From assembly GCA_024137785.1 (NCBI GenBank), contig JAHRHZ010000139.1, positions 36,479,069 through 36,543,068 of the forward strand: DNA of 64,000 nucleotides, in the 5' to 3' direction. Source of the stretch: Ginglymostoma cirratum (Eukaryota). The notes beneath the pieces were generated by a model that saw only the letters and a program-made list of their open reading frames with translations, was not told the origin of the DNA and searched no databases. Positions 28,050-60,890 of the stretch are shown here, in pieces. Within the stretch, counting starts at the first letter, position 1; each line of letters opens with the position of its first letter. The translations under genes were made by a program, and so were the position numbers.

Positions 28050-28125
28050 GTGGCGAGGCATTATACCAGTTGGGAAACGTATACCAAGAACTAGATTTGT
28101 TGCTTTCAAAGTTCCTTTGAAAGGG
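28050..28125 (+). CDS. DUSP11: DUSP11-like coding exon 2 (WRGIIPVGKRIPRTRFVAFKVPLKG)
   Basis: ttaaattag| acceptor, |gtaaga donor; matches the DUSP11 PVGQRMPGTRFIAFKVPL motif. Confidence 0.95.
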
Positions 28126-30367: not shown

Positions 30368-30499
30368 GCTATAAGCCAAAGACTAACAGCTAATCAAAAG
30401 TTTTCTCCAAAAGACCTAATAGCCAAGATCAAAGAACAGAATGAGGAACTTGGATTAATTATTGACTTGACGTATACGACTCGCTATTACACTGAGAAG
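30368..30499 (+). CDS. DUSP11: DUSP11-like coding exon 3 (AISQRLTANQKFSPKDL...LGLIIDLTYTTRYYTEK)
   Basis: tttgcag| acceptor, |gtataa donor; 132 nt, phase 0-0; family motif EELGLIIDLTYT.RYY. Confidence 0.96.
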
Positions 30500-30597: not shown

Positions 30598-30721
30598 GAT
30601 TTGCCCAAAAGTGTACAATATCAAAAACTCTACACTGTTGGACATGAAGTGCCAGACGATGCTACCATTCTGCAGTTTAAACGGAGAGTCAGGAAGTTCT
30701 TGTGGGAAAATGCAGATAATG
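30598..30721 (+). CDS. DUSP11: DUSP11-like coding exon 4 (DLPKSVQYQKLYTVGHEVPDDATILQFKRRVRKFLWENADN)
   Basis: ggtatag| acceptor, G|gtaagt donor; motif TVGHEVPDD.TI..FK. Confidence 0.96.
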
Positions 30722-39130: not shown

Positions 39131-39276
39131 GTGCATAAACATGTGGGCTGGATATTGAGCAATACATGTGAACGTATATTGCAATCAAAGTCACTGTTTG
39201 CAAGTAAAGGAAATTGACAAAATCAGGTCTAATGAGATCTTTCTCCAACTTTTATATTTGCAGTAGAAAGGTGCAG

Positions 39277-39355
39277 TGCACTGCACTGTTTTGGTGATGT
39301 ATTTTAGGTCGTGACTTGAGTGCTTAAATAACTGCAATGGCAACTTAAAGTTAAT
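39277..39355 (+). repeat. 79-bp perfect direct repeat, copy 1
   Basis: Identical to 42733-42811. Confidence 0.95.
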
Positions 39356-39542: not shown

Positions 39543-39603
39543 ATAAAATCATTGGAGTTCACTGTACTGGCGGAATTAATAGAACGGGATATCTTATCTG
39601 TAG
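39543..39603 (+). CDS. DUSP11: DUSP11-like coding exon 5, catalytic P-loop (DKIIGVHCTGGINRTGYLICR)
   Basis: tctttag| acceptor, AG|gtaaat donor; CX5R motif intact. Confidence 0.96.
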
Positions 39604-42070: not shown

Positions 42071-42732
42071 CTTTATTTAATTCATTCATTAAAGCCTTTC
42101 ATCAGTGTCTATTTGTAGTTCTGTTAAGTAGTGTAATTAGTTATTTACAAATTTGTGGTCCTAGTTTAGATATTGTTTAATCAAATGTTGTTATACTCCT
42201 CTGGAACTGGTGGGTTTTGAACCCAGGCCTTCTGGCTCAGATAGGGTCACAATAACTCTGCTACATGACCTCTCTTTGATCCTAGTTTAGACTACTCTAG
42301 GTTAAATAATCACTTATCTGCTGCATTAATAGTTCCAGGTTTCAGTGCTCAAATCATGTCATCCTCTCTCTGACTTTGTAAAACAGCAATACTGAGCATC
42401 CTCTGACTCCAGACCAAATTCCCTCTCTCGTTTCCCAAATTGATTCTTCAGTTGCCTAATTACTCTTACGTAAATTTATTGATTTTTACATCACAAGTCC
42501 TACCACTTCTTTTTTTCTCTAACTGGAAGCGTCATACAATTTTATTTGATAACAATTCTGTGTAAAGATAGTCTAGTCATATAGCATGGAAACAGAGGCA
42601 TTGGTCCATTTGCCTGAGCCAAGCCTTTGAAAGAGCTATTCAGTTGAACCTATGTTCATGCACTATCCCTGCAATTCTCTTGCTATTTATTTGTTTCCCT
42701 CGTGAAAATTATTTTGAATTCGCTTCCAACAT

Positions 42733-42811
42733 TGCACTGCACTGTTTTGGTGATGTATTTTAGGTCGTGACTTGAGTGCTTAAATAACTGCAATGGCAAC
42801 TTAAAGTTAAT
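42733..42811 (+). repeat. 79-bp perfect direct repeat, copy 2
   Basis: Identical to 39277-39355. Confidence 0.95.
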
Positions 42812-42814
42812 GGA

Positions 42815-45048: not shown

Positions 45049-45095
45049 GTACCTTATTGATGTAGAAGAAGTGGACCCTGAGACATCAATTGAAC
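45049..45095 (+). CDS. DUSP11: DUSP11-like coding exon 6 (YLIDVEEVDPETSIE)
   Basis: ttaaag| acceptor, C|gtacgt donor; RYLIDVE motif. Confidence 0.93.
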
Positions 45096-45180: not shown

Positions 45181-45256
45181 TTTTCAATACTGCACGTGGC
45201 CACAAAATGGATGGAAGCATATATTTGACTGACCTTCGAAGTGGACCAATGAGAAG
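45181..45256 (+). CDS. DUSP11: DUSP11-like coding exon 7 (LFNTARGHKMDGSIYLTDLRSGPMRS)
   Basis: tttaaag| acceptor, AG|gtgatt donor; FN..RGH......Y..DL..GP.R motif. Confidence 0.93.
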
Positions 45257-49384: not shown

Positions 49385-49513
49385 TAATTTAGGAATTGAC
49401 GTGTTTGATGCAGAGCCAGAGCCAGAACCAGAACCAGAAATACTGGAGCCTTTCCCATCGTATTCTTATAAAGGACCACATGGCCCGAGACCACTGCTTG
49501 ATGATTTTCCAGA
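49385..49513 (+). CDS. DUSP11: DUSP11-like coding exon 8 (NLGIDVFDAEPEPEPEPEILEPFPSYSYKGPHGPRPLLDDFPE)
   Basis: ctctctatttacag| acceptor, GA|gtaagg donor; 129 nt, phase 2-2, open frame. Confidence 0.85.
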
Positions 49514-50184: not shown

Positions 50185-50274
50185 ACCAGATTCACGACGT
50201 GGACCATCATATGGAGCTCTGCCTCTTTCAGCTAGAGATTTTGATGCTCCCCCTTATAATAGGTGGCATGACAG
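50185..50274 (+). CDS. DUSP11: DUSP11-like coding exon 9 (PDSRRGPSYGALPLSARDFDAPPYNRWHDR)
   Basis: Pyrimidine tract then taag| acceptor, AG|gtaaca donor; 90 nt, phase 2-2, open; composition like neighbouring exons. Confidence 0.7.
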
Positions 50275-50619: not shown

Positions 50620-51019
50620 NNNNNNNNNNNNNNNNNNNNNNNNNNNNNNNNNNNNNNNNNNNNNNNNNNNNNNNNNNNNNNNNNNNNNNNNNNNNNNNNN
50701 NNNNNNNNNNNNNNNNNNNNNNNNNNNNNNNNNNNNNNNNNNNNNNNNNNNNNNNNNNNNNNNNNNNNNNNNNNNNNNNNNNNNNNNNNNNNNNNNNNNN
50801 NNNNNNNNNNNNNNNNNNNNNNNNNNNNNNNNNNNNNNNNNNNNNNNNNNNNNNNNNNNNNNNNNNNNNNNNNNNNNNNNNNNNNNNNNNNNNNNNNNNN
50901 NNNNNNNNNNNNNNNNNNNNNNNNNNNNNNNNNNNNNNNNNNNNNNNNNNNNNNNNNNNNNNNNNNNNNNNNNNNNNNNNNNNNNNNNNNNNNNNNNNNN
51001 NNNNNNNNNNNNNNNNNNN
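50620..51019. other. Assembly gap (400 N)
   Basis: Run of N. Confidence 1.
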
Positions 51020-59879: not shown

Positions 59880-59996
59880 GCCTCGACCTCTTCCTCCTCC
59901 TCTTCCTCCACCTCCACCTTCACTTCTCTATGGTGAACACAGACCACTTTCCCGGTTCGATGACTTTGCTCCAGAGGATTACGATGGACGTTCCAG
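59880..59996 (+). CDS. DUSP11: DUSP11-like coding exon 10 (PRPLPPPLPPPPPSLLYGEHRPLSRFDDFAPEDYDGRSR)
   Basis: tttgtttag| acceptor, AG|gtagtt donor; 117 nt, phase 2-2; CpG-containing open frame with polyproline. Confidence 0.8.
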
Positions 59997-60583: not shown

Positions 60584-60890
60584 GTTCAACCATTTCAGTG
60601 AACATCGAGCAATACGTAGTTCGGAAGAAAATTCCCGCCTGCATAGTAGATATGCACCCTATTCTACAAGACTACCAGCACCTCAAGATCGCTTCAGGGA
60701 TGAGTTTGAAAGGAAACCTTATTCCTTTTCAAGCAGAAGAGAATTAGAACCACAGAGCTCTGCCCCATATACTATTTTTACCCGTGATTACAATCATGGC
60801 CAGCCACCAGAGCGCGGTCCCAGTCTGAGTAAACTCGGGGGTGGTTGTTATGATAATTTTGATGGTTTTCGTGAATATGATTGGAACTAA
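60584..60890 (+). CDS. DUSP11: DUSP11-like terminal coding exon 11 (FNHFSEHRAIRSSEENSRLHSRYAPY...GFREYDWN*)
   Basis: tcttttaatccag| acceptor; 102 codons open to TAA at 60888-60890; followed by a U-rich 3'UTR. Confidence 0.8.

Follow-up and report, generated by a model that had tools for sequence, protein, structure and literature searches.

A shark member of a second DUSP11 lineage of jawed vertebrates keeps the catalytic cysteine and arginine and replaces the P-loop histidine

Introduction

RNA triphosphatases carry the P-loop consensus HCTHGXNRT, according to the accessible text of PMC5785229. DUSP11 (PIR1) is counted among the PTPs that have no WPD acid, as stated in the available part of PMC9038691. 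It controls how much 5'-triphosphate RNA, self and viral, is visible to RIG-I, and bird poxviruses have captured the gene (available portions of PMC7706711 and PMC12058148). Arg192 is suggested to have a part in beta-phosphatase activity, and the capping enzymes do not have it (accessible text of PMC12058148). The triphosphatase domain of RNGTT/Mce1 removes the gamma phosphate only, as given in the available sections of PMC5027499.

Here we describe a DUSP11 paralogue in a 64,000-nucleotide stretch of Ginglymostoma cirratum DNA (contig JAHRHZ010000139.1, positions 36,479,069 to 36,543,068, forward strand), which we call the window. The paralogue shares with human DUSP11/PIR1 (4jmj, 4mbb, and 4nyh) the fold, about 59% core identity, the catalytic Cys and Arg, the P-loop Asn, and the absence of a WPD acid. 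However, human His154 is replaced by Gly (Asn, Thr, or Ser in other members), Arg192 by Gly, Asn194 by Ile or Val, and Tyr38 by an aliphatic residue. The paralogue also falls in a separate clade, has a different tail, and coexists with the canonical gene in the same species. RNGTT/Mce1 is likewise a cysteine phosphatase without Arg192 (PMC12058148, accessible text). However, RNGTT has retained the P-loop His and carries a fused guanylyltransferase, whereas the paralogue has the DSPc domain only. Baculovirus BVP (1yn9) and avipoxvirus vDUSP11 have the same family and fold as the paralogue, but BVP keeps the His and an ERQNY motif, and vDUSP11 keeps Arg192 (PMC12058148, in the part available).

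Xenopus dusp11.2, chicken DUSP11RC1I, and RefSeq models called "RNA/RNP complex-1-interacting phosphatase-like" are orthologues of the window gene; the tetrapod proteins have longer, repeat-rich tails than the shark protein. The gene therefore already has database names. A literature search that was short on subscription journals found no paper on the function or active site of dusp11.2 or DUSP11RC1I. DUSP11 was unmentioned in the literature on sharks, ohnologues, and gene loss among the matches listed.

Results

We located the exons by motif scans and by tblastn with a ray protein, and the boundaries were then corrected. The gene has 11 exons on the plus strand, spanning positions 1683 to 60890 of the window, with GT-AG introns throughout. 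The ORF encodes 395 amino acids and has one stop codon, at its end. Among RefSeq proteins, that of the whale shark (P0227) matches the encoded protein at 100% identity and that of the zebra shark (P0223) at 99.7%. The coding part of exon 1 (1683 to 1711) gives the MVKKNTVPDG start, which is also matched by a retrocopy described below. Exon 2 (28050 to 28125) encodes Trp11, Lys30, and an FKVPL motif, and exon 3 (30368 to 30499) encodes a DLTYTTRYY loop. Exon 4 (30598 to 30721) holds the loop at the general-acid position, where there is no clade-specific gain of Asp or Glu. The P-loop is in exon 5 (39543 to 39603), and exon 6 (45049 to 45095) follows. Exon 7 (45181 to 45256) encodes RGHKMDGSIY, which aligns with the canonical RGxxxERxNY. 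A low-confidence, likely disordered Pro/acidic tail begins in exon 8 (49385 to 49513), followed by exon 9 (50185 to 50274), exon 10 with a polyproline stretch (59880 to 59996), and exon 11 through the stop codon (60584 to 60890). All of these features are on the plus strand. The first intron measures 26 kb. Two runs of N, 400 bases each, lie at 203 to 602 and 50620 to 51019, neither of them in coding exons. A near-identical stretch of about 80 bases flanks exon 5, at about 39275 to 39355 and 42730 to 42812.

Positions 39560 to 39589 of the plus strand read HCTGGINRTG, and the codon at 39569 to 39571 is GGC. In the numbering of the spliced ORF, the motif contains His127, Cys128, Gly130, Asn133, and Arg134; alignments place Gly130 at the position of human His154. 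The window and the spliced ORF thus confirm the original prediction of a Gly130 codon in an intact frame that keeps Cys128, Asn133, and Arg134. Gly is found at the same site in the orthologues of sawfish, manta, skates, stingray, bamboo sharks, and sevengill shark. The matching codon of the retrocopy is GGT, also Gly. Therefore, Gly130 is old and real, and the earlier view that a single-base error was unlikely is borne out. The codons for His, Asn, Ser, and Gly can be connected by single base steps, so Gly130 requires no double jump.

Run X21, as raw polyA reads, supplies the evidence for expression; among the holders of the stretch that were listed, none is recorded as RNA. Exon joints 2-3, 3-4, 4-5, 5-6, and 6-7 were found in 9, 5, 7, 12, and 16 of these reads, respectively. 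Contigs from X1 and X2, which are only guessed to be RNA, show the same joints. Run X22 gave no exon joints of the window gene. Among the read rows listed, no letter deviated at 39569 to 39571. Lack of expression had been named as a finding that would speak against the prediction, but exons 2 to 7 are joined in the reads of X21.

The retrocopy is an intronless processed pseudogene elsewhere in this assembly (G000:C128, about 3878200-3879500). It is 79% identical to the window gene over the CDS, contains frameshifts and stops, and includes part of the 3' UTR. With 29 gapped codons set aside, gene and retrocopy have 113 non-synonymous differences; the retrocopy accounts for 105 of these and the gene for 3, and another 5 could be assigned to neither. 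Across species, the paralogue had a higher core identity than canonical DUSP11 in eight of nine pairs, the exception being caecilian-turtle. The whale shark-skate pair, for example, had 92.7% identity for the paralogue versus 77.5% for canonical DUSP11. The window gene is under strong constraint. Relaxed selection, which would also have told against the prediction, was not seen; the 105 changes on the retrocopy versus 3 on the gene point to purifying selection.

We built a tree from 45 chosen core rows and rooted it at the midpoint. The paralogue clade had support of 100/99, the canonical DUSP11 clade 90/75, and the two together 99/96. The paralogue clade, which includes Xenopus, duck, and other members, is sister to vertebrate canonical DUSP11, and its branching broadly follows the species tree. 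The window gene groups with vertebrate DUSP11, apart from the distant homologues, as expected for descent from DUSP11/PIR1. Because both clades contain sharks and bony vertebrates, the duplication is older than the split between them. Paralogue and canonical DUSP11 coexist in 19 of 19 species pairs, which were chosen for having both proteins. The window gene is therefore a second DUSP11 lineage that split off before the jawed vertebrates diverged, and the proposal of a second vertebrate paralogue stands.

We searched proteins with the sawfish core and took the best 120 of 716. The top block of these 120 held cartilaginous fishes, coelacanth, frogs, turtles, crocodilians, squamates, birds, carnivores, bats, pangolin, and armadillo. 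The cartilaginous members of the clade include chimaera, and further searches added caecilian and axolotl. Among the matches listed in these length-limited, clustered searches, the paralogue was not seen in ray-finned fish, primates, rodents, ungulates, marsupials, or monotremes. The bird proteins that start with MVKKNT had been expected to lack the His as well; they do, with Asn at that site. A further, more diverged copy with the P-loop HCTSGVNRT is present in sawshark (P0007 and P0008) and sevengill shark (P0243), and it was not found in the present assembly (G000). In sevengill shark, its contig is equal in length to the one that carries the main copy.

The search for a separate canonical HCTHG copy in the same genome, as the original prediction had envisaged, found none. 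An exact degenerate P-loop pattern run over the assembly matched RNGTT only. A looser pattern matched the window gene and two non-coding places in addition to RNGTT. Four protein queries, one of them with a stricter first look, returned the window gene, its retrocopy, and RNGTT, and otherwise nothing but weak or repeat-tail matches. However, canonical DUSP11 proteins with His and ER are recorded for whale shark, zebra shark, rays, skate, and chimaera, and proteins so named exist for catshark, sawshark, and sevengill. We therefore reject a loss of canonical DUSP11 in cartilaginous fishes. The whale shark, whose paralogue protein is identical to that of the window, has a canonical DUSP11 on record (P0536). 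Most simply, the absence from this assembly would reflect an assembly gap or a masked stretch. A USP8_dimer search of the assembly gave two loci only and no clear STAMBP. Because neither canonical DUSP11 nor a clear STAMBP was found, the assembly may lack or mask a small chromosome.

We found no trace of DUSP11 in the 200 kb around TPRKB (G000:C91:1.77-1.97 Mb, 7.7% N), where TPRKB is flanked by ORFs that we take to be ALG10-like and KCNA-like. The sheep gene model P0589 fuses DUSP11 and TPRKB domains, unlike this locus. We also considered X-linkage of the missing gene and found no support for it. The shark X has been tied to chicken chromosome 33 (PMC11406177, in the portion available), which does not settle X-linkage of DUSP11. 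A pattern that required RGH gave two hits, as many as the control; it does not test for the canonical gene, since the canonical DUSP11 of the whale shark has RGC at that place.

We then compared 96 distinct paralogue cores with 128 distinct canonical cores, de-duplicated from 177 and 153 full-core sequences, respectively. The site of human His154 is His in 128/128 canonical cores and in none of the paralogues, which have Asn (68), Thr (12), Gly (9), or Ser (7). The site of Arg192 is Arg in 128/128 canonical cores, versus Gly in 95 and Ala in 1 of the paralogues. In the window gene, this second fixed change is the GGA codon at 45213 to 45215 on the plus strand, which encodes Gly168. Asn194 is conserved in 127/128 canonical cores and is hydrophobic (Val or Ile) in the paralogues, and the site of Tyr38 is aliphatic. 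The predicted alteration of the P-loop therefore holds as far as the absent His is concerned. However, Gly is only one of four small residues used across the clade, and the coupled losses at Arg192 and Asn194 had been missed.

Many other residues are unchanged. His127, Cys128, Thr129, Gly131, Asn133, Arg134, Thr135, and Arg162 are present in 96/96 paralogue cores, and Lys30 and Lys89 are also kept. Asn133 and 43 core positions show almost no variation in either clade. The paralogue clade has also fixed new basic residues, namely, Arg12, Lys50, and Lys79. Both motifs were readable in 371 distinct cores; of these, 286 had His with Arg, 83 had a non-His residue with Gly or Ala, 2 had a non-His residue with Arg, and none had His with Gly. 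Because the 83 belong to one clade by common descent, the coupled changes count as one event, not as many independent ones. Most of the distant representatives (106 of those with both motifs readable) have His with ER, which is therefore the ancestral state. The signature Asn at Cys+5 is kept in 81 of the 83 clade cores and is Ser in 2. The caecilian (P0414/P0530, HCTNGVSRT) and axolotl (P0420/P0531, HCTTGLSRT) copies have Ser at the equivalent of human Asn157, and their P-loops resemble the loop of ordinary DSPs.

The window protein has the HCx5R(S/T) P-loop, with Cys and Arg, of the cysteine-based DSP/PTP phosphatase superfamily. Of the HCTHGxNRT consensus of RNA 5'-triphosphatases, it has the Asn at Cys+5 (Asn133) but not the His at Cys+2 (Gly130), and it has Gly168 in place of the Arg192 of the PIR1-type ERxNY motif. 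The RNGTT of this genome also has no ER motif at the Arg192 position. Judged by its sequence, then, the gene is a DUSP11 by descent that lacks two residues expected of a PIR1-type polyphosphatase. Loss of the catalytic Cys or Arg, which we take to mark a pseudophosphatase, was not observed; both are invariant. In the loop about 30 residues before the Cys, where protein-directed DSPs have a general-acid Asp or Glu, the clade has no acid specific to it; at position 96, Glu prevails in both clades, and the primate sequence has Gln.

PF00782 (DSPc) scores 44.4 bits in P0223, versus a cut-off of 33.5. In the AlphaFold model of P0223, the core is predicted with confidence, whereas confidence is low in the tail, from about residue 194. 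The best Foldseek match of the model is PIR1 (4jmj), with a TM of 0.91 by target length. The ESM Atlas, queried with the duck protein, returned DSPc clusters only, and a viral fold search found nothing further for the paralogue. The window protein has RYAPY, a PY-NLS-like motif, at 60648 to 60662 on the plus strand. The pattern R[FY]xPY, presumably a PY-NLS, occurs in 94/160 paralogue tails versus 5/255 other tails, counts that are inflated by isoforms; RxxPY is missing in several mammals. As a sequence motif, it suggests nuclear import. Amniote paralogue tails (P0129 and P0144) have long degenerate repeats rich in Arg, Asp, Gln, and Phe. Shark canonical DUSP11 tails (P0441, P0536, and P0539) have Trp-Gly/Ser-Gly-Gln tandem repeats.

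Discussion

We suggest, with about even confidence, that the paralogue, with Cys128 and Arg134 retained and the equivalents of His154, Arg192, and Asn194 replaced, is an active cysteine phosphatase that removes a single terminal phosphate. In such a reaction, Cys128 would attack a phosphate that the P-loop backbone holds together with Asn133 and Arg134, by way of a cysteinyl-phosphate intermediate. With the basic side chains for a second phosphate gone, 5'-ppp or 5'-pp RNA would not be converted to 5'-p RNA. A good leaving group would be favored, because basic side chains were lost and a general acid was not gained. The favored case may be a 5'-triphosphate, which would lose its gamma phosphate, or a non-RNA pyrophosphate, and turnover would be slower than that of DUSP11. 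The Pro/Arg/Asp-rich tail with its RxxPY motif would likely place the paralogue in nuclear RNP particles, and canonical DUSP11 would have retained the ppp-to-p job after the duplication. However, the change of Asn157 to Ser in caecilian and axolotl argues against a clade-wide anhydride-specific role. A narrower version, in which a stand-alone predicted enzyme trims 5'-triphosphate RNA only to diphosphate or caps the ends by binding, seems doubtful to us.

Conservation of the paralogue may equally reflect a binding surface. A pseudo-enzyme with hardly any turnover, whose role would be to bind a phosphoprotein or phosphorylated RNA ends or to serve as a scaffold in RNPs, is less probable than an active phosphatase, at somewhat better than one chance in four. 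His154 in PIR1 and its equivalent in BVP are reportedly needed for activity, as judged by mutagenesis, and the clade may therefore be nearly dead. Two basic pocket residues were lost together, the His site drifts among Asn, Thr, Ser, and Gly, and Asn157 was lost in two amphibians. However, 96/96 cores keep both the nucleophile Cys and the P-loop Arg, and the pseudophosphatases known to us usually lose one or the other. Loss of basic residues should also weaken the binding of ppp ends. In favor of a pseudo-enzyme, the dead PIR-1(C150S) of C. elegans still binds ppp-RNA, and the baculovirus PTP C119S retains its in vivo role (available part of bioRxiv 10.1101/2020.08.03.235143). The accessible portions of PMC5066614, PMC2904801, PMC5027499, and PMC11406177 do not address the role of the His154 equivalent.

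We regard it as rather unlikely that the paralogue is a full RNA 5'-polyphosphatase (ppp to p) that divides the DUSP11 job by tissue or compartment. The nearest folds and sequences are those of PIR1, BVP, and RNGTT, Asn133 and the 43 core positions barely vary within either clade, and the canonical gene was not found in this assembly. Other residues would have to compensate, and the fixed Arg12, Lys50, and Lys79 might do so. However, the His and Arg are kept in all canonical cores and in BVP, and canonical DUSP11 stands beside the paralogue in every species pair, whale shark included. A sequencing error or a decaying gene copy is hardly conceivable, given the Gly in the retrocopy and the orthologues, the spliced reads, the intact ORF, and the strong constraint.

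A copy with a rebuilt pocket, conserved since before the split of sharks and bony vertebrates, suggests that birds, bats, carnivores, reptiles, and sharks have a further substrate or regulator. If the doubtful narrower version is right, most jawed vertebrates would have an overlooked stand-alone enzyme, apparently kept in birds, bats, and carnivores. Among the primate and rodent proteins returned, the paralogue was not seen, which would account for its having been overlooked. If it trims to the diphosphate or binds the ends, it would oppose DUSP11 and leave RNA ends that are XRN-resistant and visible to RIG-I or ready for capping. The paralogue is also a natural test of which residues confer the diphosphatase step of PIR1. 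Because many databases use one name for both genes, work in chicken, Xenopus, dog, or bat can pick the wrong one.

BTAF1 (DUF3535 and SNF2 exons) adjoins the window gene downstream. A STAMBP-family exon, which we take to be STAMBPL1-like, lies 4 Mb away on the same contig. BTAF1 and STAMBPL1 presumably mark a human 10q block that is paralogous to 2p13. Human DUSP11 is at 2p13.1 (PMC12058148, accessible text). Since the neighbors mark a block paralogous to that of DUSP11, the duplicate likely arose in a vertebrate genome duplication. We infer this timing rather than read it from the tree, because support for the canonical clade is 90/75 and the protein searches identified no lamprey or hagfish member. 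Upstream of the window, a set of minus-strand exons (L066-L070) without Pfam, PDB, or Atlas support presumably resembles a CC2D2A/CC2D2B gene.
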